A stretch of DNA of 62,689 nt, counting the filler, from a bacterium (lineage in GTDB: Bacteria > JAMORN01), in assembly GCA_027063545.1 (NCBI GenBank). It is 11 parts of 11 records of this genome, joined end to end, with 100 filler letters (N's around TTAATTAATTAA, not from the genome) between each part and the next. Parts side by side here need not be neighbours in the genome. Positions count along the whole stretch, not along the records: positions 3,222 to 4,722 come from JAMORN010000113.1; 10 more parts are not named here. One strand, given 5' to 3'. Under the pieces are notes generated by a model. That model searched no databases and was not told the origin of the DNA. It saw nothing but the letters and a program-made list of their open reading frames with translations. Position 1 is the first letter of the stretch; each line of letters starts with the position of its first letter. This document shows, piece after piece, positions 2,618 through 48,826 of this stretch. Made by a program: the position numbers and the translations under genes.

Positions 2618-3121
2618 TTAACTATTTTGCATAAGATTAGTTATATGTTTTTTAAAAACTTCAATAGATTTTTTATTATATATTAATTTATTTTCTAAAG
2701 GTGTATTTAAAATCTTTTTAGATAATTCTTTGATTTTTTCTTTGTTTTTTAGAAGTTCTATAGTTTTTTCAATATATTCATCTACAGAGTAAACAACAAG
2801 TTCATTAAGCCCTATTTCCATAAGCGCTGCGCTTCCAGTATTTTGAAAACCACATTTCCCTCTTAAAGATATAAAAGGTGTTCCAACCCATAAACTATCA
2901 ACAACAACATTATATTCACCATAAGGAAATGATCCTAAAGCAATATCACATTGTTTTATAATGTTAAGATATTCTTCATAAGGTTTATATACGTATTGAA
3001 TCATGGATTCGCCGAAAATATTATATAATTCATCTTTGAGGATAGGGAGTTCTTGGGCAACTACACCGCCATATAAAATATGGAATCTAGTATAATATGG
3101 TAATTTATCTTTAATTTTTTT
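2618..3121 (-). CDS. GT41-family (HMW1C/SPINDLY-like) glycosyltransferase, C-terminal fragment
   Basis: PYEEYLNIIKQCDIALGSFPYGEYNVVVDSLWVGTPFISLRG and ELVVYSVDEYIEKTIEL. The frame appears open to the contig end. Confidence 0.7.
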   Translation of the reverse strand, partial: KKIKDKLPYYTRFHILYGGVVAQELPILKDELYNIFGESMIQYVYKPYEEYLNIIKQCDIALGSFPYGEYNVVVDSLWVGTPFISLRGKCGFQNTGSAALMEIGLNELVVYSVDEYIEKTIELLKNKEKIKELSKKILNTPLENKLIYNKKSIEVFKKHITNLMQNS

Positions 3122-3221
3122 NNNNNNNNNNNNNNNNNNNNNNNNNNNNNNNNNNNNNNNNNNNNTTAATTAATTAANNNNNNNNNNNNNNNNNNNNNNN
3201 NNNNNNNNNNNNNNNNNNNNN
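3122..3221. other. Artificial contig linker
   Basis: N44-TTAATTAATTAA-N44. Confidence 0.98.
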
Positions 3222-3877
3222 TCTATTAGGCTTCTTGTCGGCATATAACAGGGAACTATCCCCTCCTTCTCATAGTAAGGCGGAATTGTTCTATATAACG
3301 CTACTTTTTTTGTGTTTACATCAAATCTATCACACGGAAGCGGTTTTGAAGGAGTGGTTTCATCTATCATAAAACTCTTGTCTTTTCCAATTTCTTCAAT
3401 AATGAAATTTTTAATTTTTCCAAATCCCATATTGCCTTTTTTTCCTATAAATCTTACATTTTCTAAAAGATTGTTGATAATATCTTTGTTACCTTTTACA
3501 TAAAAATAAATATTATCAATAATTAATGCTTCCATTCCAAATTTAAAAGCTTTAAATTCCCCTCTTCCTGTATCTATTTTTTTACCTGTAAGCTCATATA
3601 TTCTTTTTTCTTCGGGTTTTTTAGTAATTATCACATTATATGGTAGAACTAAATTATCATCATTTTCTATATACCAAATACTACCACTTAATATTCCTTT
3701 TTGTTTATCAAGCCAATCAATTTTATCAATATAATCTTCCGTTTTTATAAAACCATCTATTTTCTTTTCCTTTCTTAAAAGATTGAAAAAAGAATTTAAC
3801 AGGATATTATCTATTGTTAAATATCTGTTTAGAATAACGGGTGTGGATAAATTAAACGTTATTTTTAAGTTTTCCAT
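3222..3877 (-). CDS. csf3: Type IV CRISPR-associated Csf3 (Cas5-group RAMP), truncated at contig end
   Basis: N-terminal LKITFNLSTPV...LTIDNILL, central IDTGRGEFKAF, FYVKGNKDIINNLL, G-rich loop IGKKGNMGFGKI, then KPLP and RTIPPYY...CYMP, in the order expected for Csf3. AAGGAG RBS. Confidence 0.8.
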
Positions 3878-3886
3878 AAATTCTCC

Positions 3887-4555
3887 TTAAATATTTTTTT
3901 CTTTAAGTTCGCCCCAACCTAATCCTATTTTATAACCTACAAATCTTGGAAGAGAATAATTTGAAGCCAATTTTAGATATACTGCTTGATATTTTTTTAA
4001 ACCTTCCTTATAATCTACTAACCTAATATCGTTTTCTTGAATAATTAAATTCAAATCATCTAAATAATCCAAGTCTATATTAAAATACTCTTTAGCAAAT
4101 AACTTGGTAGAATGAATTATTCTGTGTTGAATATATTTTATTAAGTCTTTTTTGTTTTGAGTATTTGTGGCATATACAATTTTATATTCTACGGGATTTG
4201 TTGATAATATGATAGGTGTTCGTGTTTGATAAAAATATAAACCCGGCTGTGGTATTGTAAAATCTTCGCTTTTTAATTCTATATCTTCTATCTTTATTTT
4301 TTTACCCCCTAAGAATATATTATTTTTTATACTCTCAAGCTTCTTTAATATATGATGCATTAATCTATAATCATTTATATAATTTATTATTTCAAATCCT
4401 TTTTTATAAGGCTTTGCGTAGATAATTTTTGGAGGTTTTCGTTTGTGCCACATTACCTCATCTTTAAATTCATTATCAACGATAGAGCCTAATAAATTTC
4501 TTATATCTCTTGGTTTTACGTTTTTAAGTTCTTTGGTTTTTACAAAAATTTTCAT
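3887..4555 (-). CDS. cas6: Cas6-family crRNA-processing endoribonuclease (Cas6b/Csf5-like)
   Basis: YQTRTPIIL strand and C-terminal G-rich loop LPRFVGYKIGLGWG. Lies between CRISPR repeats and csf3. The likely start is the ATG at 4555 (AAAGGA RBS), not 4588. Confidence 0.75.
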   Translation of the reverse strand: MKIFVKTKELKNVKPRDIRNLLGSIVDNEFKDEVMWHKRKPPKIIYAKPYKKGFEIINYINDYRLMHHILKKLESIKNNIFLGGKKIKIEDIELKSEDFTIPQPGLYFYQTRTPIILSTNPVEYKIVYATNTQNKKDLIKYIQHRIIHSTKLFAKEYFNIDLDYLDDLNLIIQENDIRLVDYKEGLKKYQAVYLKLASNYSLPRFVGYKIGLGWGELKEKNI

Positions 4556-4591
4556 ATCAAATCCTTTCATATTTATAAAATCTGTCATATT

Positions 4592-4689
4592 TTTTTATCC
4601 CATCATATATTTTTTATAAACAGAGAAATGGGTAATCTAGATTGGAGTTTTGAATACAACTTTAAACCAACCATATGTTCTTTATAAAC
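4592..4689 (-). CRISPR. CRISPR array remnant: repeat, 38-nt spacer, degenerate terminal repeat; probably continues beyond the contig end
   Basis: On the minus strand, 4689-4660 is GTTTATAAAGAACATATGGTTGGTTTAAAG, 4659-4622 is the spacer TTGTATTCAAAACTCCAATCTAGATTACCCATTTCTCT, and 4621-4592 is GTTTATAAAAAATATATGATGGGATAAAAA (23/30 identical, no gaps). Adjacent to cas6. A further 33 nt upstream could be a partial spacer. Confidence 0.7.
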
Positions 4690-4722
4690 AACTAACAAGC
4701 CTCTTTTTCAGGTCTGTTTTCT

Positions 4723-4961: not shown

Positions 4962-5532
4962 ATATTCCTTTTTCTGTTATTAAAATATCAAGTTGAAGGT
5001 CAAACTCATCTTCTTTAAAATCTAAATTTATAAAATTCTCCATAATAGGAGAAATTTTTATTGTATTATATTTTTTTATCTTAGAATAAAACCTATCATA
5101 ATAACCACCACCCATTCCAAGCCTAAAAAAATCTTTATTTATCCCAACAGAAGGGACCACCAAAACCTCAGGAATAGTTAAAGGAATGTTAGCCTTTTTT
5201 AAATTTTTTGATATATCAGGCTCTAAAATATTAAATTTTCCTACTTTTAAATTATCAAAGCTAAAAATTCTATAAAAATCCATATTTTTTTTATCAATAA
5301 CCTTTGGTAGATAAACTTCTTTGTCTTCTTTTAAAAGAAATAAAATAAAATCTCTAATATCAACCTCACTACCTACAGGATAATATAAAAAGAATATGGA
5401 AAAATCTTTTAATTTTTGATTGTAAAGATTAACTAGATTTCTATTTATAATAGATGAAATTTCTTTTAATTTTTCTTTTGGAATATCTTTTCTTAACCTT
5501 AAAATCTCTTTTCTTAAATATTTCTTTGTCAT
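4945..5532 (-). CDS. 5-formyltetrahydrofolate cyclo-ligase
   Basis: KKYLRKEIL, YYPVGSEVD, ILEP, VVPSVG, RLGMGGGYYDR. Confidence 0.92.
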   Translation of the reverse strand: MTKKYLRKEILRLRKDIPKEKLKEISSIINRNLVNLYNQKLKDFSIFFLYYPVGSEVDIRDFILFLLKEDKEVYLPKVIDKKNMDFYRIFSFDNLKVGKFNILEPDISKNLKKANIPLTIPEVLVVPSVGINKDFFRLGMGGGYYDRFYSKIKKYNTIKISPIMENFINLDFKEDEFDLQLDILITEKGIYERKK

Positions 5533-5563
5533 ATTTAGAATATAATTAATTATATTTGATTTT

Positions 5564-6715
5564 ATGAAACAAAAAAGGATTTTATATTTTGGAATTTATC
5601 AAAAAGATTACCCAAGAAATTATTTAATAATAGATGCACTAAGAGAAAATTTTTTTGTTGATGAATTAAACTATGATTTTTTTAAACAAACAAAAAATAT
5701 AGTAGGAGCATCAAAAAAAGAGAAAATAAAATTTCTATTTAAAGGCTTCTTTTTACTCTTTTTATATATTCTTTTAACTTTAAAGTTAATTCTTGTCCAA
5801 AGGCGTTACGATATAATATTTACAGGCTATATTGGGAGTTTAGATAATTTTGTTTTATCCCTTTTAAAAAGACTTAAAATAATAAGAAAAAAGGTTGTTG
5901 CAAATCCTTTGGTTTCTTTGTATGATACAATTGTTGAGGATAGAGGAATTATTAAATGTAGGTTTTTTTCTAATTTAATAATATTTTTTGAAGAGTTTAG
6001 TTTTAAGGGGGTAGATTTAATTATAATAGATACTTATGAGAATAAAAGATACTTTATAGAGAAATTTAATTTAGATGAAAATAAGGTTAAAGTAGTATGG
6101 GTTGGTGCTGATGAAAGATTTTTTTATAAAAAAGAGAGAGAAGATGAAAATAAAAATAAAGATAAAGTAAAAGTTTTATTCTTTGGAAAATATATTCCCC
6201 TTCATGGAATAGAGAATATAATAAAGACAATAGAACTTTTAGAGGAAAAAAAAGAGAGTTTTAAGTTTATTTTTATAGGTAGGGGACAATTATTTGAGTA
6301 TTTTCAAAAGGAATTTAAAAAATTAAAAGAAAAAGATTTTGATTTAGAAATAATAGAGTGGGTTGATTATGAAAAACTTAACAATTATATAAACAGTAGT
6401 GATATAGTTTTGGGTATTTTTGGGGTAACTCCCAAAGCAAAAAGGGTTATACCTAATAAAGTTTTTCAAGCAGTAGCAGTAGGTAAGGTTGTATTTACAG
6501 CAAAAACAAAAGCAATTTTAGAGTTTTTTAAAGAAGATGAGATTGTTTTGATAGATGAACCTTTCCCTGAGAATCTAAAAAAGCATTTTTTAGGCTATTT
6601 AGAAAATAAGGATTTTTATAAAAAGATAGGTGAGAAGGGATATTTAAAATTTAAAAAACTTGCTTCAAAAGAAGCGCTTTCTCAAATGTTAAAACAAATT
6701 TTATTGGAGTTGTAA
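5564..6715 (+). CDS. GT4-family glycosyltransferase
   Basis: LFFGKYIPLHGIENI and SDIVLGIFG...IPNKVFQAVAVGK, a GT-B C-terminal domain. Confidence 0.85.
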   Translation: MKQKRILYFGIYQKDYPRNYLIIDALRENFFVDELNYDFFKQTKNIVGASKKEKIKFLFKGFFLLFLYILLTLKLILVQRRYDIIFTGYIGSLDNFVLSLLKRLKIIRKKVVANPLVSLYDTIVEDRGIIKCRFFSNLIIFFEEFSFKGVDLIIIDTYENKRYFIEKFNLDENKVKVVWVGADERFFYKKEREDENKNKDKVKVLFFGKYIPLHGIENIIKTIELLEEKKESFKFIFIGRGQLFEYFQKEFKKLKEKDFDLEIIEWVDYEKLNNYINSSDIVLGIFGVTPKAKRVIPNKVFQAVAVGKVVFTAKTKAILEFFKEDEIVLIDEPFPENLKKHFLGYLENKDFYKKIGEKGYLKFKKLASKEALSQMLKQILLEL

Positions 6716-6760: not shown

Positions 6761-9720
<2,960 letters not shown>

Positions 9721-9722
9721 TT

Positions 9723-10076
9723 ATGGTATTTGAAGAGAACTTAATTCAAAACATCAATGTAGAGGTGCCTATAAACAGAATTTTTGCAAGGATGGGATAT
9801 AATAGAAAACTAACCACACTACCAAAAGAAAAAGAGGGGGAGATTTTAAGAGTAATAGATGAGGCTGTTTTATATTGCGATAATAAGGGACTTTATAAAA
9901 TATTTGATTTTGAGTTTTGGGATAAAGGGATAGTTGTAGAGGGAGAGAAGATTGAGAGTTTAAATATTAAAAAACTTTTAGAAAATTCCCATAAGGTTGT
10001 TTTTATGGCTACCACAATAGGGAAGGATTTGGTTGCAGAAAGGGATAGGTTATTTAAGGAAGGTGATTCTTTTAGA
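9723..10076 (+). CDS. Stand-alone methionine synthase activation-domain-like protein, truncated
   Basis: IFARMGY...IESLNIKKLLENSHKVVFMATTIG resembles stand-alone Met_synt_B12 proteins. Confidence 0.6.
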
Positions 10077-16702: not shown

Positions 16703-18571
16703 TTATTTCATTAACACAACTTTCTTAACTAAATTAAAATTATTACCTTCTAACTTTATAAAATAAACTCCACTTGATAATTTACTTCCATTTAACTTAT
16801 ACCTATAACTCCCTTCTTTCATCCCCTTATTTTCTATTAAACTCTTTACTAAATTCCCTCCTATATCATATACTTTTAAACTTACCTTTGTTGGTGATGG
16901 TAAATTAAATTCTATATTTACTACTGGATTGAATGGATTTGGATAGGTTTTAAGTGAAAAATCTTTTTCCACTTTAGAATCCTTTATACCTTCCTCTTCT
17001 CCAACAGTATGAACTAAAAACGCTAAAAGAGCTACAAGAGGAGCATTATAATCATCACCACTTTCTGTATATATGTATTGATTTACATCATTTACAAAAT
17101 CATTGTAATCCTGAGGACCTCCGATTAAAGCTCCAGAATTTGGGAAAACATATTCATAACTATTTTTTAAATCATCTGGTGGATTATCATTTGTACCCAT
17201 AGCGTTTCTATGATGTACTTTAAAATAAGAATCTCCTTTAAAACCATGTATAAATGTATGTCCAAACTCATTTACTCCCATAATATAATCGGCTATTCTT
17301 CTTGCATAAAATTTTGCCCCTTCCAATGGATAAGTTCCACTTGCTTGAGAATTCTCTAATGTTACCTTTGTTTGATCTTCAAAAATCACTCCTCTTTTCC
17401 ATAGAGTATATAATAAGCCAGCAGCAAAAGCACTTCCTGCTGCTAGTTTATTTGTACCCCAACGAGAAGCAAAAAATGGAAATCCTTCAGGATGATCTTG
17501 TCCACTCTCCCAACCTAATAAAAATACATTCTTTGCTAAAAAATCTCTTATATAACCCCAATTCTCATTATTTGCATTTGGATCCTCTAAAATCATATAA
17601 TAATATGTGGCATCTGCTACAGTATCCCAACAATAAGGATAATTAGATTCCCATTTATTTTGATAGTAAGAAAAAGCCTCGTCCTTATATGTAGCATCAC
17701 CTGTTACATTATATAAAATCATAGCTGCAAGAGCAAGTTCATCCCACCAGTCTGTATTTGCAACAGGATAATAGGTTGGAATTGTAGCATTATCAGTATG
17801 ATTTTTAGCATAATTATAGGCAAGTTTTGCATAAGTTAGACACTGTTGAGCATAATCAGGATCATATTTTTTATAATGCTTATACATCAAAGCCAATGCT
17901 GTAGCATAATCAGCTGCTTGAGGGCCTCCTTTTGTTCTTGTTGCATATACAGGCCTTGGATCCCCTCCGTCCTCAACTGGTAAAGTGGATTGATAGCTTG
18001 AAGTAACCCAATATTTATGATCATAATCACCATTTCCAACATAATAAACAAAAGTATTCTCATCAGGAAATGACTTCATAAAATAATCTGTAGCAACCTT
18101 AACCTCATTCAATACATCTGGAATACCATCTGGAGGTCCATATTCTTGAGAATAATTATCCTCAAAAGCATCAGGCCATATATCATAAGCAACTAAAAGT
18201 GTTAAAGCTGCCATTCCCATTGTTACAGCAACCTTAATATGATCCCCACAATCATGCCATCCACCTGTTAAATCATGACCTTGATAAGTGTTGTCTTGAA
18301 CATCATCTATATACCATTGGCCTTGTCCATCTTGAGTATGACAATAAGGCCTATCTTGGGTTATTGGGTTTTCATGTAACATCCAATTATAAGTATCTCC
18401 ACATCTTTGAGCACCAAAAAACTTTAAAGCCATTCTTAAAGCTTCTTTATAATCTTCATAGGTAAAATTAGATTTATAACTCATATAATCATATTCTGCT
18501 TTTAAATTATATACCTCTATAATTATGAATATAAATAGCCACAAGATAGATCTTATTGTCTTCTTTTTCAT
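16703..18571 (-). CDS. Secreted GH9 endoglucanase with a T9SS/Por-like C-terminal domain
   Basis: Signal peptide, LTGGWHDCGD, DELALAA, HHR, ALIGGP, YTESGDDYNAPL; C-terminal YPNPFNP...LSSGVYF...KKVVLMK. Confidence 0.92.
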   Translation of the reverse strand: MKKKTIRSILWLFIFIIIEVYNLKAEYDYMSYKSNFTYEDYKEALRMALKFFGAQRCGDTYNWMLHENPITQDRPYCHTQDGQGQWYIDDVQDNTYQGHDLTGGWHDCGDHIKVAVTMGMAALTLLVAYDIWPDAFEDNYSQEYGPPDGIPDVLNEVKVATDYFMKSFPDENTFVYYVGNGDYDHKYWVTSSYQSTLPVEDGGDPRPVYATRTKGGPQAADYATALALMYKHYKKYDPDYAQQCLTYAKLAYNYAKNHTDNATIPTYYPVANTDWWDELALAAMILYNVTGDATYKDEAFSYYQNKWESNYPYCWDTVADATYYYMILEDPNANNENWGYIRDFLAKNVFLLGWESGQDHPEGFPFFASRWGTNKLAAGSAFAAGLLYTLWKRGVIFEDQTKVTLENSQASGTYPLEGAKFYARRIADYIMGVNEFGHTFIHGFKGDSYFKVHHRNAMGTNDNPPDDLKNSYEYVFPNSGALIGGPQDYNDFVNDVNQYIYTESGDDYNAPLVALLAFLVHTVGEEEGIKDSKVEKDFSLKTYPNPFNPVVNIEFNLPSPTKVSLKVYDIGGNLVKSLIENKGMKEGSYRYKLNGSKLSSGVYFIKLEGNNFNLVKKVVLMK

Positions 18572-18588
18572 CCTATAAACACCTCTTT

Positions 18589-19301
18589 TTACTTCATTAA
18601 TATAACCTTTTTACTATAAACAAACGAATTATTGCCTACAACTCTTACAAAATAGATACCACTTGAATATCTACTAGCATTCCATGTAAAACTGTAAGTT
18701 CCTACTTTTAAATCCTTTGCTATTGTTTCAACTAATTTTCCATTTATATCATAAATACTTATACTCTTTATTTTAACGTCTGAAGGTATTTGTATAGAAA
18801 TATTTAATACTGGATTAAATGGATTTGGATATGCATTTAAGCTAAATGTTTTTGGTATTTCTATCTCTTTTACCCCATAAAATAAATCACTAGAAGTATC
18901 AATCGGAGCCTCTTTTGCACAAATATAAGCTAATGCCCCAACTAATCCAGCATTATAATCAATTCCTCCCTCTGAACCTGTATAAGTATCTACATTATCA
19001 TTATAACTTGATGCATTTCTTGAACCACCAATCATAAGTCCAGCATACTTATTTCTATCAGGTATTCTCAATGCATTTTTGTCTGCCACATTATGATCAT
19101 CTAAATATATATTTCTATGATGTGGATGTTGAACATAATTATCCCCAAAACCAACAACAAAAGAAAGATTTGCACTATTATCACCTAAAATATAATCCAC
19201 TTGTCTATATATGAAATTTTCATATTTTGTTTTATCTAAACTCTCTCCTATAATATCTGCTAATTTTAAAAGTAAAGCCACACTAAAAGCAGCTCCTGCA
19301 T
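18589..19301 (-). CDS. Second GH9 glucanase, C-terminal fragment with a T9SS/Por-like C-terminal domain
   Basis: QVDYILGDN, SFVVGFG, PHHR, SEGGIDYNAGLVGAL; YPNPFNP...SSGIYF...KKVILMK. The frame is open to the contig end. Confidence 0.9.
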
Positions 19302-28489: not shown

Positions 28490-29329
28490 TCTGATCATGA
28501 TGGTATAGACGATAAACATGATAAATGTCCGTTCCAACCAGAAGATATAGATGGATTCCAAGACAAAGATGGTTGTCCTGATCCTGATAATGACCAAGAT
28601 GGTATTCCTGATGTTAAGGATAAATGTCCAGGTACTGATAAAACTGTAAAAGAAGGAAAAAACACAAGAGAAACATACAATGGTATAGATGATGAAGATG
28701 GTTGTCCTGAAGAGATAGTAGATAAAGATGGTGATGGTATAGATGATAAAGTTGATAAATGTCCATTACAACCAGAAGATATAGATGGATTCCAAGACAA
28801 AGATGGTTGTCCTGATCCTGATAATGACCAAGATGGTATTCCTGATGTGAAAGATAAATGTCCAGGTACTGATAAAACTGTAAAAGAAGGAAAAAATACA
28901 AAAGAAACATATAATGGTTTTGAAGATGAAGATGGTTGCCCTGATCAAAAACCTGTAATTAAAAAGCCACCTAAAAAGAAATTTATACCTCAAAGATTTA
29001 GATTAAAAGTATTTTTCAAAACTGGTAGTGCTAGACTTACACCTGATAGTTATCCTGCATTAAATGACTTATGTGCTAAGTTAAAAGCTAATCCAAAAGT
29101 TAAGATATTAATAGAGGGTCATACAGATAATAGAGGAAGCTTCAAATACAATATGAGACTCTCTAGAAGAAGAGCAATGGCTGTTAAAAGATATCTTGTT
29201 AAAAAATGTGGAATTGATCCTTCAAGAATTAAAACAAAAGGTTATGGACCAACAAAACCAATTGCTGATAACTCTACACCTGAAGGAAGAGAGTTGAATA
29301 GAAGAATTGAAGTTAAGAGACTTAACTAA
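28490..29329 (+). CDS. OmpA-family protein with thrombospondin type-3-like Ca-binding repeats, 5' truncated
   Basis: The frame is open from 28490 with DxDGI.D..DKCP and EDxDGFxDxDGCPD repeats. OmpA_C motifs: FKTGSA, IEGHTD, LSRRRA, NRRIE. Confidence 0.93.
   Translation, partial: SDHDGIDDKHDKCPFQPEDIDGFQDKDGCPDPDNDQDGIPDVKDKCPGTDKTVKEGKNTRETYNGIDDEDGCPEEIVDKDGDGIDDKVDKCPLQPEDIDGFQDKDGCPDPDNDQDGIPDVKDKCPGTDKTVKEGKNTKETYNGFEDEDGCPDQKPVIKKPPKKKFIPQRFRLKVFFKTGSARLTPDSYPALNDLCAKLKANPKVKILIEGHTDNRGSFKYNMRLSRRRAMAVKRYLVKKCGIDPSRIKTKGYGPTKPIADNSTPEGRELNRRIEVKRLN
28499..28944 (+). repeat. Intragenic tandem duplication with a 234-nt (78-aa) period
   Basis: 28499-28710 matches 28733-28944, including an 80-nt identical stretch CAACCAGAAGAT...CCTGATGT. 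Confidence 0.95.
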
Positions 29330-31577
29330 TATAAAACTCCCCTCTTGGCAACAAAAGCTAAGAGGGGAGATTTTTTTTATATTTTTTCTTTTAATCTTTT
29401 TTTACTCTAATGTATTTTCTTATTATAAAGTATGGGTGTTTTTCCATAGAAATTTATCAAGTAATCAGATAAATAATTTTCTTAAATCCCAAAAAATAAA
29501 AACAACATATATATCATATAATTTAAAAATAGCATCATGTTTTCTTAACAAAGATAATCTTAAAAGATTAAAAGAATATAAAAATTTTATAACAGGTTTT
29601 TCTTTAGTTAAATCATATAGATTTGATAATATTGTTCCTTTAAAAAAAAGTTTTTCTTACAATTTAGAGGTTGATGAAAAAAATCTTTGGAGAGAAAAAT
29701 TCTCTTCCCAGTTTTATTATCAATATAAATTTGGTGGAATAATCTCTTTTTTGAATTATTTTGACTTAGATACCTTAAAAAAAGTAAAAATAGGTGTTAT
29801 AGATGCTGGTTTTTTCTCAGATAATAAATCTTTTTCTAAAATAAATATAAAAGAAGTCAAAAACTTAACTCCTGAAGGATTAGATGAAGATGTCTCAGGA
29901 GCATCCCATGGAACCCTTGTTACTTCTTTAATAGGAGGATACTCTCCTTATCAAATCTATACATCTGGCATAGGTTGTGATTTTTATTTAGTGAAAACAG
30001 AAGTTAATAAATATGAGAGAATTATTGAAGAAGATTTTCTTCTTCACGGAATAGAATATCTTGCTGATACCATTGGTATAGATGTTATAAATATATCCTT
30101 AGGATATAATATATTTGATGATACAACTCAACATGATATACAACAATTAACAGGTGATTCTCTTGTTTTAGAAAAGGCTATAAACTACTACTTTTACAAT
30201 AAAGGGATTATTTTTACAATTGCTGCTGGTAATGAATATACTTCTGATTGGAAATATATTATTGTTCCTGCTGATGCTAAAGAGGCAATATCTGTTGGTA
30301 GTGTTAATTCAGATAGTATTCATTCTCTTTTTTCTTCGGTGGGAATTTCTGAGAATAATATTAAACCAAATGTTGTTTATTTGGGCGAAAATGTATCAGG
30401 CTTTAATGGAACAAATGATAATAGTTATATTGAAACAGCTTCTGGAACATCTTTAGCTTCTCCTTTAGTCTTAAATTATATAATACTAGCAAAAAGACTT
30501 CTTAATTTATCCCCTTTTGAAATAAAAGATAAACTATATAGAACTTCATCAAATTGGAATAATCCAAATTTAGTATATGGTTATGGAATACCTAATGCTT
30601 TCAAATTATTAAATGACTCTTCTAATATATTTGGCTTTGTTTTAGATAAAGATACAAAAAATCCTTTATATGGGGTAAAAATAAAATATAATAACAGAGA
30701 AATCCTTTCCTCAAGCGATGGTTTCTTTTATATAGGCGATCTTTCAGAAAAAAATATTTCTATCAAATTATCTTATCCTGGTTTTTATGATACTACCTAT
30801 GTTTTATCTACACTTTCTTTTGATTCTTTACTTTTAAGGAAAAAAATGAATACCTTAACATTATATCTTTACTATAATCAAAATACTCCTCTACTTACTT
30901 ATGCAAAAATTAAATATTTAGATGATAATAATAACACTATTGATTCTAGTTATTCTCTAAATGATTTCTCCTTTTTTATCCCTGAAAAATTTTCTAAAAT
31001 AAAAATAGAATATAATGACCCATTAACCCATTCTGTTATCACAAAAGTAATATCAAAAGACACATTATATAATGGAAAAAAAATATTTCTTATGCAGAAT
31101 ATTAAGATAATAACATTTTTAAATAACCTCAACAATCCTATAGATAATATGGACGTATCTATTATTTCTGGAAAAAAAATTATTAACTTAAAAACTGATC
31201 AAAATGGAAAAGTTATTATATTATATGATGATATAAATTCTTTTAATTTTTCTGTAAAAACAAACTCAAACATATACGAAAATATTATAGTTAATATGTC
31301 ATTTTCTTCTGAAGATACAACAATTTTTTTAAATATAAAACCTTATATTTACCCAAATCCTGCTATAGGAGACCAAAATATTTATATAAGAAGTGAAGAT
31401 AATGATGAAATTTTTATTGTAAATTCTAATGGTAGAATTTTAGATTTAAACCTTGTCTATAATCCTATTGAAAAGAGTTTTATACTAAACTCCTTTGATT
31501 TATCCTCAGGTGTTTATTATATTATAATCAAAAGAGGGGAGAAAAAATTTAGAAAAAAAATTTTAGTAATTAAGTAA
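29307..31577 (+). CDS. Secreted S8 subtilisin-like serine protease with a C-terminal secretion-type domain; start uncertain
   Basis: Catalytic triad IGVIDAGF / SHGT / SGTSLASP, oxyanion motif AAGNE; C-terminal IYPNP...LSSGVYY...KKILVIK. Confidence 0.9.
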   Translation: MKLRDLTNIKLPSWQQKLRGEIFFIFFLLIFFYSNVFSYYKVWVFFHRNLSSNQINNFLKSQKIKTTYISYNLKIASCFLNKDNLKRLKEYKNFITGFSLVKSYRFDNIVPLKKSFSYNLEVDEKNLWREKFSSQFYYQYKFGGIISFLNYFDLDTLKKVKIGVIDAGFFSDNKSFSKINIKEVKNLTPEGLDEDVSGASHGTLVTSLIGGYSPYQIYTSGIGCDFYLVKTEVNKYERIIEEDFLLHGIEYLADTIGIDVINISLGYNIFDDTTQHDIQQLTGDSLVLEKAINYYFYNKGIIFTIAAGNEYTSDWKYIIVPADAKEAISVGSVNSDSIHSLFSSVGISENNIKPNVVYLGENVSGFNGTNDNSYIETASGTSLASPLVLNYIILAKRLLNLSPFEIKDKLYRTSSNWNNPNLVYGYGIPNAFKLLNDSSNIFGFVLDKDTKNPLYGVKIKYNNREILSSSDGFFYIGDLSEKNISIKLSYPGFYDTTYVLSTLSFDSLLLRKKMNTLTLYLYYNQNTPLLTYAKIKYLDDNNNTIDSSYSLNDFSFFIPEKFSKIKIEYNDPLTHSVITKVISKDTLYNGKKIFLMQNIKIITFLNNLNNPIDNMDVSIISGKKIINLKTDQNGKVIILYDDINSFNFSVKTNSNIYENIIVNMSFSSEDTTIFLNIKPYIYPNPAIGDQNIYIRSEDNDEIFIVNSNGRILDLNLVYNPIEKSFILNSFDLSSGVYYIIIKRGEKKFRKKILVIK
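29337..29378 (+). terminator. Rho-independent terminator after ompA
   Basis: CTCCCCTCTTGGC-AACAAAA-GCTAAGAGGGGAG, a 13-bp stem with one G-U, followed by A-T8. Confidence 0.8.
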
Positions 31578-36507: not shown

Positions 36508-37172
36508 CTATTTTATAAAAATAAATCTCTTTGTTATTATATTATTTTTTGTTTTTATGGTATAAAAATAAATTCCTGAAGATAAATCTTTAGCATTAAA
36601 AATATATCTGTGTAATCCTTTATTTATTTTTTTATTATCTATTAAAGTAGAAATATTTCTACCATTAATATCATAAATTGCTAAATTTACAATTTGATTT
36701 TCTGAAAGATAAAATTCTATAGTCGTTGTTGGATTAAAAGGATTTGGATATACTTTTGTATACAGAATTTCATTTTTTTGTACCTTTTGAGTAGTCTGTG
36801 TTGAATATGACAATACTTTATCACTAACATTCCAAAACTCTACTTTTCCATACTCTAAACTAACTAGCTTTCTATTATCTGGGCTTAAAACAACTCTATA
36901 AACAGCTGTGTTTGTAGGTCCATAAGTTTCTATTTCTGTTGAAAAATTATTAAAATCTAAAAAATGAATATATCCATACTGATCTCCTATAACAATAAAC
37001 TTTTCATCATTAGAAATATCAAATTCTGTTACATTTCCTAAATTTGTAGAATCAATTTTTTCTCCTGTTTCTATATCCCATTTTATTAATCTTCCATATG
37101 TATCTGAGGTAATTAAGTACCCTTCTTTTGAAAATCTCATCTCTGTAGGAATACCCGAAAGATTTGAAGAAG
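36508..37172 (-). CDS. WD40-repeat secreted protein with a T9SS/Por-like C-terminal domain, C-terminal fragment
   Basis: GRLIKWDI and GKVEFWNV WD-type repeats; YPNPFNPTT...LSSGIYFY. The frame is open to the contig end. Confidence 0.8.
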
Positions 37173-46459: not shown

Positions 46460-48826
46460 TTAATCTTGAATTTTCATACTTATTTTATTCCATAGGCTTT
46501 TTAAATCTTTTAATAAAACTTCAGATTTTTGAAGAATGTTCTCTTGATTCATTAGATATTCTATACTATTTCTTAACCCTCCAATGTTCTTTACAATAGT
46601 ATCTGCTTGTAATTGAATCTCCTGTAATTCTGCTTTTAATTGTTCTATATTTAATAAACTGGCCTTTAATAATTCTGTTTTTCTATTTATTTTTTCTATT
46701 TCCTTCTCTTTATCTTCAATTTCTTTTACCTTATACTCTATTGTATCTAATTTAGCTTTAAATCTATCTATATTTAGATTTAAACTATTGTACTTTTCCT
46801 CTATTTGATGTATAAAATCACTTAATCTTTCAAAAGAAATTCTAAACTCATTAGAACTTTCATATAAACTTTTTAATTTTTCTCGATAACTATTTATTTC
46901 TTCTATAACTTGTTGAAGTCCTTTTAAATATTCTCCTAGTGAACCTATATCTTTTTCTATATTGTCTTTATTACTTAAAAATCTATTAATCTTATCTAAC
47001 ATTTCATTTAATTCTTTAACCTTATTTTCTATTAATTCCTTTATATTTGTATAGGTATATGATACCTCTACTTTATATTTCTTTATCTCTTCAGGTAAAT
47101 TCTTTAAATATTCAATATCACTTTTTAAATTATTATATATGTTATATATTTCATTTTTAATACTCTTCCACTCTGTTAAGCTTCCTTTTATTTCTATTAT
47201 ATCTGTTTCCTTAGATTTTATCTCATCATAGGAATTAATAATATTATATACCAAGGCTTCTAATCTATTGAGATTATTTTTTAAGCCCTCTAAATTACTA
47301 AATTGGTTTTGAATTTCATTTATTGTTTGATTTATATTTTCTATTATAATACTTTTTCTTTCTAGATTCTCTAATTTTTCATTAAATTCTTCATAGGTTT
47401 TATTAAGAAAAGTAAATTTTTCTTCTATTTTATTTATAAATTCTACTATTTCCTTTAACTTAAAATAATCCTGTTTAATAAATTCTAAATCATTTATAAC
47501 ATCATAAACAATATTCTTTTCCTCCTCTATTTTACTATAATTTTCTTTCCATGAATCAATTATATATTCTATACTCTTTATTTTATTATCAATATCTACT
47601 AATTCATTTTCTAATCCTTTTTGTTTATCTTTAATATTGTCTACCTCTTTGGATATTATATCAAGTTCCTTTATTTTTTTCTCTATTGTATCTACATTTT
47701 TAAATAATTGTTGTAACTTTACAGATAATTCTTGTAAACTATTATACTTTTCTTCTAACTTACCTATCTCATTATGAACATTTTCTATATTCTCTTTAAT
47801 TCTAACTAACTCTTCATATTTGTCTTCGCTCTTTTTTATATTATCATTTATATATTCCAATAAGGTGTTATAATAAATAAGACTATTTTTCTTTTCCTCT
47901 AATATTTTTAATTCTTGTTCTATATTACTAATATTTCCTTGAGCCTCTATTATATAATCTATCTGGGACTTTATACTATTTAGAGACAATTTTAATTCTT
48001 CTATCTGCTTTTTATATTTATCAATATCTTTAAATTTTTTATTAATTATTGCTTTCTCTTCTATAAAACGACCCTCTATAGATTTTATTTCATTATATTT
48101 TTCTTTAATCTTCCATAGGGTTTTCTCTACTTCATAATAATCATCTAATACTTTATCTATAATATTTCTTTGTTTATCTATATGTTGAGTCTTTATTTCT
48201 ATGTATTCTATATCATCCTTTATTGAATCCACAACTCCTTTTATAGAAAAAACATCTTCTTGAATATATTCTAATAATGAATTTAAATTATCAATTTCCT
48301 TAATTTTTGTTTTCACCTCTTTTAGTTTAGTATCTAATAAATTTATATTATCCGAAATTTCTTTATACTCTTTCATTTTATTTTCAACCTCTATCTTAAA
48401 ATCTAGAAAAGTATCATATAACGAGGATATTTTTTCTATATACTTCCCTAAATTTGCTCCATCAGGTCCAGATAGATTTATAACATCCTCTAAAAGCATT
48501 CTAAATAACTGTGATTTTTCATCTATTCTAGCCTCAAATACTTTCATGCTATTTTCTATATTTTCTATATCCTGTTGAAGTTTATCTATATTTGATGCTA
48601 AATTAGTAAATTCTTTTAATTGTTCTCTTAAATTGTTTATATCCTCTATTGATTTTCTATAATTATCTAATTTTTCTTTTACTTTAATAAATTCCTTAAA
48701 ATTTTTGTTAAATTCTATTATCTCATTAGAGTATTTCTCTATCTTTTCCAATAAATATTCATATTTTTCTAAATTTAATCTTTTATCCTCTTTTTTCTTA
48801 AAAAATGATATTATAGCCTTAAGCAT
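46460..48826 (-). CDS. Long coiled-coil protein (788 aa) with no catalytic motif seen
   Basis: Continuous E/K/I/L-rich heptad pattern; no Walker A motif; start overlaps the stop of the upstream gene. Confidence 0.75.
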   Translation of the reverse strand: MLKAIISFFKKKEDKRLNLEKYEYLLEKIEKYSNEIIEFNKNFKEFIKVKEKLDNYRKSIEDINNLREQLKEFTNLASNIDKLQQDIENIENSMKVFEARIDEKSQLFRMLLEDVINLSGPDGANLGKYIEKISSLYDTFLDFKIEVENKMKEYKEISDNINLLDTKLKEVKTKIKEIDNLNSLLEYIQEDVFSIKGVVDSIKDDIEYIEIKTQHIDKQRNIIDKVLDDYYEVEKTLWKIKEKYNEIKSIEGRFIEEKAIINKKFKDIDKYKKQIEELKLSLNSIKSQIDYIIEAQGNISNIEQELKILEEKKNSLIYYNTLLEYINDNIKKSEDKYEELVRIKENIENVHNEIGKLEEKYNSLQELSVKLQQLFKNVDTIEKKIKELDIISKEVDNIKDKQKGLENELVDIDNKIKSIEYIIDSWKENYSKIEEEKNIVYDVINDLEFIKQDYFKLKEIVEFINKIEEKFTFLNKTYEEFNEKLENLERKSIIIENINQTINEIQNQFSNLEGLKNNLNRLEALVYNIINSYDEIKSKETDIIEIKGSLTEWKSIKNEIYNIYNNLKSDIEYLKNLPEEIKKYKVEVSYTYTNIKELIENKVKELNEMLDKINRFLSNKDNIEKDIGSLGEYLKGLQQVIEEINSYREKLKSLYESSNEFRISFERLSDFIHQIEEKYNSLNLNIDRFKAKLDTIEYKVKEIEDKEKEIEKINRKTELLKASLLNIEQLKAELQEIQLQADTIVKNIGGLRNSIEYLMNQENILQKSEVLLKDLKSLWNKISMKIQD

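Follow-up and report, generated by a model that had tools for sequence, protein, structure and literature searches.

A 1.5-kb contig from an AT-rich bacterium that very probably carries the central part of a CRISPR-Cas locus of subtype IV-E

From what kind of CRISPR-Cas system does a short contig derive if it carries only the end of a repeat array and two cas genes, and is that system likely to be in use? This question is raised by a contig of the bacterial assembly GCA_027063545.1. The DNA analysed (hereafter the window) comprises 62,689 bases, that is, 11 contigs of 1.5-9 kb and 22-31% G+C, joined by N runs with TTAATTAATTAA linkers. Positions 3222-4722 form one separate contig of 1501 nt with 26% G+C and N/TTAATTAATTAA linkers on both sides. 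Read on the minus strand from 4722 down to 3222, it contains a CRISPR array tail (two repeats, one and a half spacers), cas6 and the 5' half of a csf3-csf1 gene. A preliminary description had reported an array tail, cas6 and csf3 on this contig, with two co-oriented open reading frames (ORFs) 9 nt apart that contained the motifs IGKKGNMGFG and VGYKIGLGWG; all of these elements were found where they had been described, both ORFs being on the minus strand. On the basis of current results, we consider it very probable that the contig represents the middle of a subtype IV-E locus, namely the trailer end of the array, cas6 and the Csf3 half of a csf3-csf1 fusion.

The two cas genes and their assignment

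The gene fragment at one end of the contig (3222..3877, minus strand) has 218 codons, lacks a stop and is open to the contig end; it corresponds to the Csf3/Cas5 part, or 5' half, of a csf3-csf1 (cas5-cas8-like) fusion. It contains IGKKGNMGFG and is separated by 9 nt (3878-3886) from the co-oriented cas6, whose product carries VGYKIGLGWG near the C-terminus. Searches with PADLOC showed that the fragment matched seven type IV Cas5 models, the best of which was Csf3-Csf1_0_IVE (E 1.4e-60, 203 bits, profile positions 1-217 of 479), and that the cas6 product matched only the typeIV_Cas6 model Cas6_1_IVE (E 3.8e-33, residues 21-230). Neither protein matched any model of type I or type III at E <= 1. 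The preliminary description had proposed a type IV system, to be set against possible best matches to type I or III RAMPs (repeat-associated mysterious proteins) or to non-Cas proteins. No such best match appeared in the profile searches; as the best matches were all to type IV proteins, a type I/III RAMP reading was rejected.

The label IV-E itself might be considered an artefact of the profile library, in which case the contig would come from type I/III or from a different subtype of type IV, namely IV-A, where csf1 is a gene of its own. Indeed, the fragment also matched the generic model Csf3_0_IV (122 bits, E 6.2e-36), IV-A Cas5 models (<=40 bits) and, weakly, IV-C Cas5. Moreover, the contig ends at ...CYMPTRSLI, which is the Csf3/Csf1 junction of the relatives' fusions, and thus the window alone cannot show a fusion. 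However, the score of the fusion model clearly exceeded those of the generic and IV-A models, no stop is present at the junction, and P0037, a protein of 481 aa from another assembly, is 100% identical to the fragment over all 218 residues and is a full fusion, covering fusion profile positions 1-475 of 479 (E 4.5e-103) as well as Csf1_0_IV over residues 265-428. The fragment was also 47-59% identical to the N-terminal halves of the fusions of eight relatives, seven of them complete (476-517 aa) and that of locus L001 cut by its contig end at 280 aa; all eight relatives in which the gene is complete, including the Campylobacter concisus plasmid pICON, have fusions of 476-517 aa. Together with the absence of type I/III matches, these observations leave the other-subtype explanation very remote.

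The fusion in the window was taken as established because P0037 is an identical full fusion and because contigs in run assemblies (Logan contigs of four public runs, X1-X4, aligned to the contig stretch) continue past 3222, by 436 nt in X2 and 183 nt in X4; longer contigs able to extend the locus exist, one of 3124 nt encoding P0001 and one of 1696 nt encoding P0037. Thus, it could be established, though indirectly and from sequence comparison, that csf1 forms a single ORF with csf3, of which it makes up the 3' half. The earlier expectation of csf1 beyond the contig end therefore holds for its position, past 3222, and fails for its form, which is not that of a separate gene. Synteny suggests that only the csf1 part lies past this end. 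It also suggests that dinG (csf4) and csf2 (cas7) are located upstream of the array, past 4722, and that the whole locus resides on a plasmid-like element.

The cas6 gene (3887..4555, minus strand) encodes 222 aa plus stop and had been listed as an ORF of 233 aa at 3887-4588. An alignment with 22 relatives revealed MK at the window's start column in all of them, two (P0002 and P0005) being listed with N-terminal extensions before it, and AAAGGA is found 6 nt upstream of the ATG at 4555 (MKIFVKT...). The start was taken at 4555 because of this shared column and the preceding AAAGGA, and the ATG is almost certainly the true start. Invariant residues in the 23 Cas6 sequences were R19, H37, K48, Y109, R112 and, in the G-rich loop, G211/G213/G215 (222-aa numbering); His37 is presumably the catalytic residue. 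A ColabFold model built from the 23-sequence alignment (pLDDT, predicted local distance difference test, 91.4; pTM, predicted template modelling score, 0.86) had 47 Foldseek matches in the PDB at E <= 0.001, and the top matches were Cas6 endoribonucleases. The best was Cas6b (4z7k_A, E 1.8e-9, template modelling (TM) score 0.71/0.73), and further matches included Cas6 of S. thermophilus and P. furiosus, type IV-A Cas6 (7xfz_H, 8rfj_M) and Csf5 (6h9h_A, 6njy_A). As modelled, the protein would adopt the double ferredoxin-like (RRM) fold of Cas6 with its C-terminal glycine-rich loop (GYKIGLGWGE).

In a search of 5.8 billion proteins, Cas6 had 36 matches, one of which was the window's own and the others were 42-63% identical; the relatives were named only 'hypothetical protein' in any source. 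The Csf3 fragment matched 37 longer proteins (454-533 aa), and two of these carried the name Csf1 or Csf3 in a source. A second Cas6 of the family, 44% identical to that of the window, was observed on a 1309-nt metagenome contig (L011:346-1307), where the next ORF is an unrelated, hydrophobic-looking one and not csf3.

The array and a candidate spacer target

All array features lie on the minus strand, between cas6 and the 4722 end of the contig. Repeat A (4661..4689) is 29 nt long and reads GTTTATAAAGAACATATGGTTGGTTTAAA on this strand. It is separated by the last spacer of the array (4622..4660, ~38-39 nt) from repeat B (4593..4621), a degenerate terminal copy identical to A at 23/29 positions; the two repeats are 68 nt apart and 80% alike over 30 nt. 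On the other side of repeat A, 32 nt of a further spacer (4691..4722) are visible before the contig end cuts it; 3 further nt would complete it. Overall, the array has 29-nt repeats and ~36-39-nt spacers. On the cas-gene strand the repeats read GTTT...TTAAA, and since they decay at the cas6 end, this end was regarded as the trailer.

Between repeat B and cas6 there is a gap of 37 nt (4556..4592, minus strand), consisting of two 18-19-nt tandem units and including the AAAGGA ribosome-binding site; Tandem Repeats Finder (TRF) reported a tandem repeat at 4555-4592 with period 18 and 2.1 copies. The units bear a weak resemblance to the repeat core (ATATGA..G.AT). A third, strongly decayed repeat copy at 4556-4592 is not claimed here, as only a 10-nt core agrees with the decayed copies of locus L008 and the spacing is irregular.

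Are A and B repeats at all? Taken alone, their similarity is weak because the contig is AT-rich and 13 direct-repeat families of comparable quality were listed in the same 1.5 kb. With only two copies at 80% identity, and with no Rfam match on the contig at E <= 1, one could argue that the resemblance arose by chance in AT-rich DNA and that the two genes stand alone without an array. Two independent tests argue otherwise. First, the Logan contigs of the four runs contain repeat A linked back to a further copy of itself, with 32-36 other letters in between, and these inserts are of three kinds. In X4, a joint leads from 4722 to 4660 with 'TAT' between, that is, the next repeat starts 3 nt after spacer 4691-4722, and the window contig therefore broke inside a longer array. 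Second, every one of the 122,762 29-mers in the window was compared with the CRISPR repeats of the two closest relatives, L009 and L008, and the highest score for both fell on repeat A (24/29 and 23/29, respectively, against a background with means of 9.5 and 8.8 and an sd of 2.5). A score of 21/29 with both was obtained for repeat B, which ranked second on its own for L008 and shared this rank with two unrelated sites for L009. Location and period (68 nt) also correspond to those of the relatives. Accordingly, the two ~30-nt repeats that the preliminary description had placed upstream of the ORFs are real. The explanation by chance, whose probability we put next to nil, was rejected as already refuted by the tandem joints and the repeat scan. 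The CRISPR array is real, and further spacers exist in the population: at least three were found beside undecayed copies of repeat A in the run assemblies.

No terminator-like sites were found on the contig, and a promoter scan was uninformative (14 sites versus 10.6 +/- 3.5 expected). No further CRISPR-like array was found within the window.

The incomplete spacer has an exact counterpart in the same samples. Positions 4689-4722 (the spacer plus one or two bases) matched 34 nt without mismatch in the middle of records from three runs: X1#8 (914 nt, depth 47.5), X2#15 (1357 nt, depth 14.1) and X3#23 (1386 nt, depth 161). The sequence before 4689 in these records, on the repeat side, is unlike the repeat. 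Pieces of the locus in the same three runs had depths of 2.8-6.7, a comparison weakened by the fact that each Logan contig has a single depth value, which reflects abundance poorly. The simplest reading is that the match represents a protospacer on more abundant, co-occurring DNA, whether of a plasmid, of a virus, of some other organism or even of the host's own chromosome (~60 kb of which was checked). An exact match to more abundant DNA in the same samples suggests that the system is in use. The PAM (protospacer-adjacent motif) side of the protospacer lies beyond the contig end, and the match is a natural target from which the PAM, and what sort of element is attacked, could be worked out. 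Searches of 4689-4722 against PLSDB and INPHARED gave only partial matches at chance level (best E 0.9 and 0.4), and the last spacer (4622..4660) had no match in the other window contigs, the related loci, PLSDB or INPHARED. For both spacers, nothing longer than 14 nt was shared with the other ten contigs or with loci L001-L013 (L007 excluded).

Several observations weigh against the proposed assignment and its functional interpretation. Only 1.5 kb of the locus is present, and csf2, dinG and the csf1 half were not seen in the window. The match of the Csf3 fragment to the NCBIfam model TIGR03116 (cas5_csf3; E 4.2e-15, 56 bits) falls below the curated cut-off of 140 bits, and Pfam-A gave only noise for both proteins; PF27781 and PF27782, present as precomputed tags on relatives, did not match the window proteins in the Pfam search. 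As the repeat adjoining cas6 is degenerate, the array is old at this end and may not be processed there. No stable hairpin was predicted for the repeats (minimum free energy -0.9 and 0 kcal/mol, no better than shuffles), and Cas6 binding therefore cannot be read from structure. Finally, every mechanistic step discussed below is an analogy, IV-E being an experimentally uncharacterised subtype.

Could the contig then be a decaying, non-functional IV-E remnant, an old array end with leftover genes? The 23/29 identity of the repeat nearest to cas6 would fit this, and so would the fact that only a fragment was seen: Cas models had no match among 56 ORFs on the other ten contigs, and no other cas gene occurs in the other 61 kb of the window. 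On the other hand, neither ORF is interrupted before the contig end, the identical full-length 481-aa fusion occurs in another assembly, and the catalytic-type residues and G-rich loop of Cas6 are conserved. The additional spacers beside undecayed repeat A, together with the one spacer that has an exact target in the same samples, are also difficult to reconcile with decay, and complete relatives show the same decay of repeats towards cas6. We therefore regard a remnant as highly unlikely.

Related loci and genetic context

Related loci were collected by scanning contigs with the Cas6 alignment, which gave 6 genome loci and 7 metagenome loci; the latter include the same 1501-nt contig, and one short locus occurred in both sets. 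A first scan of genome contigs with a single Cas6 sequence had produced 280 pattern matches, none of which was confirmed. The scan of IMG/VR with the alignment gave 7 pattern matches, again none confirmed, and no relative was found there.

PADLOC analysis of the relatives identified Csf4_3_IVE as the best DinG model in all four loci tested (L003, L004, L005 and L009), Csf2 in all six tested (the same four plus L008 and L012) and the Csf3-Csf1 fusion in all seven tested. A DinG or RecD helicase had been anticipated for the window's system; by synteny it would be a DinG of the IV-E type, and the RecD alternative was not borne out. Cas3 or Cas10 was not the best model for any ORF flanking the relatives' cas genes, the sole Cas3 entry being a weak, lower-ranked match (E 4e-6) of the L003 DinG. 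Five loci (L001, L003, L004, L009 and L010) have the order dinG, csf2, CRISPR array (period 65-68 nt), cas6, csf3-csf1, and in L008 the array is upstream of csf2. Decay of the repeats towards cas6 was also observed in L009, L008, L010 and L001. The last repeat ends ~19-30 nt before the start of cas6 in the five loci with the common order and 37 nt before it in the window, so that the spacing in all six is ~19-37 nt.

Several relatives are accompanied by plasmid genes: two TrwC relaxase genes and a TrwB-type coupling protein beside L003; ParA, two ParB, a MobA/VirD2 relaxase and SSB beside L004; a Rep3 initiator beside L010; ArdC and a primase beside L009; and MobC beside L005. The window contig itself, of which 1.5 kb is seen, could be chromosomal or plasmid-borne.

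Some relatives showed additional features. L003 (12237-12620) and L004 (12250-12811) have a second CRISPR array with a different repeat behind csf3-csf1, that is, two arrays with distinct repeats per one Cas6. L003 also has a 112-aa ORF without family match between csf2 and the array (9441-9776), and L008 a 184-aa ORF without family match between cas6 and csf3-csf1 (2998-3549). Two loci are of the Campylobacterota kind: in L012 (8835-15031), cas4, cas2 and cas1 directly follow csf3-csf1 and precede a 13-repeat array; in L005 (5348-9513), cas4 and cas2 follow csf3-csf1, and cas1 was not identified. No DinG match was found among the ORFs of L012 tested. About 2 kb upstream of its IV-E genes, roughly at the dinG position of other loci, L012 contains an IS200/IS605-type pair (5078-6686), consisting of a TnpB/Cas12f-like protein (383 aa, PADLOC Cas12f E 1.4e-79) and a Y1 transposase. 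In L005 (2822-5214), DinG is split into two adjoining ORFs of 566 aa (the N-terminal part of the profile) and 238 aa (Helicase_C_2), which may reflect a frameshift or an assembly error.

The other ten contigs of the window carry ordinary housekeeping genes of Gram-negative type, such as NAD-dependent ligase, LptF/G, GAPDH, aconitase and SHMT. A Por_Secre_tail (type IX secretion) sorting domain is found at the C-terminus of two glycoside hydrolases of family GH9, a subtilase of family S8 and a WD40-like protein (16706-19299, 29307-31574 and 36511-37170); from these proteins we infer a host belonging to the Fibrobacteres-Chlorobi-Bacteroidetes group or a similar organism. One of the contigs has at its start (28498-28944) a tandem repeat with a unit of 234 nt (1.9 copies, 93% matches), located within the gene for an OmpA-domain/thrombospondin type 3 repeat protein. 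A 788-aa coiled-coil protein (46463-48826) without clear family had weak matches to the SMC-like defence proteins LmuB and JetC, which are probably coiled-coil noise.

Possible mechanism and comparison with known systems

A mechanism can be proposed only by analogy, on the basis of the summary of type IV-A in PMC11127173. The array would be transcribed in the direction of the cas genes, and Cas6 would cut the precursor of the CRISPR RNA (pre-crRNA) within each repeat and stay on the 3' repeat part. The Csf3 part would cap the 5' handle, and Csf2 subunits would line the guide as a backbone. The zinc-finger Csf1 part might read the PAM, open the target DNA and stabilise the R-loop, which in turn would recruit the DinG helicase to unwind DNA in the 5'->3' direction. 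Interference of DinG with the target, most likely a rival plasmid, would then, with no nuclease dedicated to the system, cause the plasmid to be lost or silenced.

The gene order raises a more specific idea, namely that the window and L001, L003, L004, L009 and L010 represent a distinct IV-E architecture in which the array lies inside the operon, cas6 and csf3-csf1 are translated from the 3' tail of the pre-crRNA, and Cas6, by cleaving at the last repeats, defines where the 5' end of its own mRNA lies and perhaps also how stable this mRNA is. Such a feedback role of Cas6 would be consistent with the decay of the terminal repeats and with a ribosome-binding site placed in repeat-like sequence. 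We regard this idea as speculative and rather unlikely; if true, the embedded array would couple the processing of crRNA to the expression of the effector through a feedback built into the locus.

Among the type IV subtypes, IV-E has been studied least, and the fragment is very probably a new, divergent member of this known, experimentally uncharacterised subtype. With its relatives, it extends IV-E to AT-rich, uncultured lineages and to conjugative or mobilisable plasmid-like DNA; the extended set comprises 36 Cas6 and 37 fusion proteins among the 5.8 billion searched, the window's own and its identical copy included. Its value lies mainly in its membership of a widened IV-E clade that is borne on plasmids and has the array embedded in the operon, and not in the 1.5-kb fragment itself.

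As described in PMC7038947, IV-E forms an outgroup to IV-A, its DinG having diverged and its Csf1 being fused to Csf3, and is represented by 'a few examples' from Campylobacter and from Bacteroides, some being carried on plasmid-like elements. In the account of type IV loci given there, adaptation genes are almost exclusively absent. The target and mechanism of IV-E are listed as unknown in a table of a 2024 review (PMC11127173).

Compared with type IV-A (CasDinG; PDB 7XFZ, 8RFJ), there is the same Class 1 effector of Cas6, Cas5 (Csf3), Cas7 (Csf2) and a small Cas8-like Csf1, with DinG and no nuclease, as well as plasmid targeting, and the window's Cas6 model matches 7xfz_H (E 7.4e-7, TM 0.65). 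In contrast, Csf1 and Csf3 are separate proteins in IV-A, no IV-A Cas6 model matched the window's Cas6, and the DinG of IV-E is, according to PMC7038947, significantly diverged; IV-A has been tested experimentally, whereas IV-E is known from loci without such tests. The best structural matches, Cas6b and other type I-B/III Cas6 (PDB 4Z7K, 6FJW, 3PKM), resemble the modelled protein in their double ferredoxin-like fold and in having a G-rich loop at the C-terminus; however, sequence identity is only 9-15%, and these proteins serve type I/III effector complexes.

The closest described system is that of C. concisus plasmid pICON (NZ_CP021643.1), the sole match in PLSDB, four proteins of which match the same four PADLOC models with very high scores. 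The window and its clade have in common with it the Csf3-Csf1 fusion, an IV-E-type Cas6 and repeats of ~29-30 nt with a period of ~63-68 nt, and the relatives of the window additionally share the IV-E-type DinG and plasmid carriage. The sources differ: the window comes from an AT-rich lineage labelled hydrothermal vent, whereas known IV-E systems are from Campylobacter or Bacteroides. The gene orders differ as well. In pICON, dinG (on the opposite strand) is followed by csf3-csf1, cas6, csf2 and a 21-repeat array, whereas in the window's clade the order is dinG, csf2, array, cas6 and csf3-csf1, with the array embedded among the cas genes. The Cas6 proteins are 33.9% identical, and the suggestion that the window might carry a divergent variant is fair, given 34% identity to the only IV-E found on a reference plasmid. 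On the basis of the gene order and this identity, the window's clade appears to be a divergent branch of IV-E with a rearranged operon.

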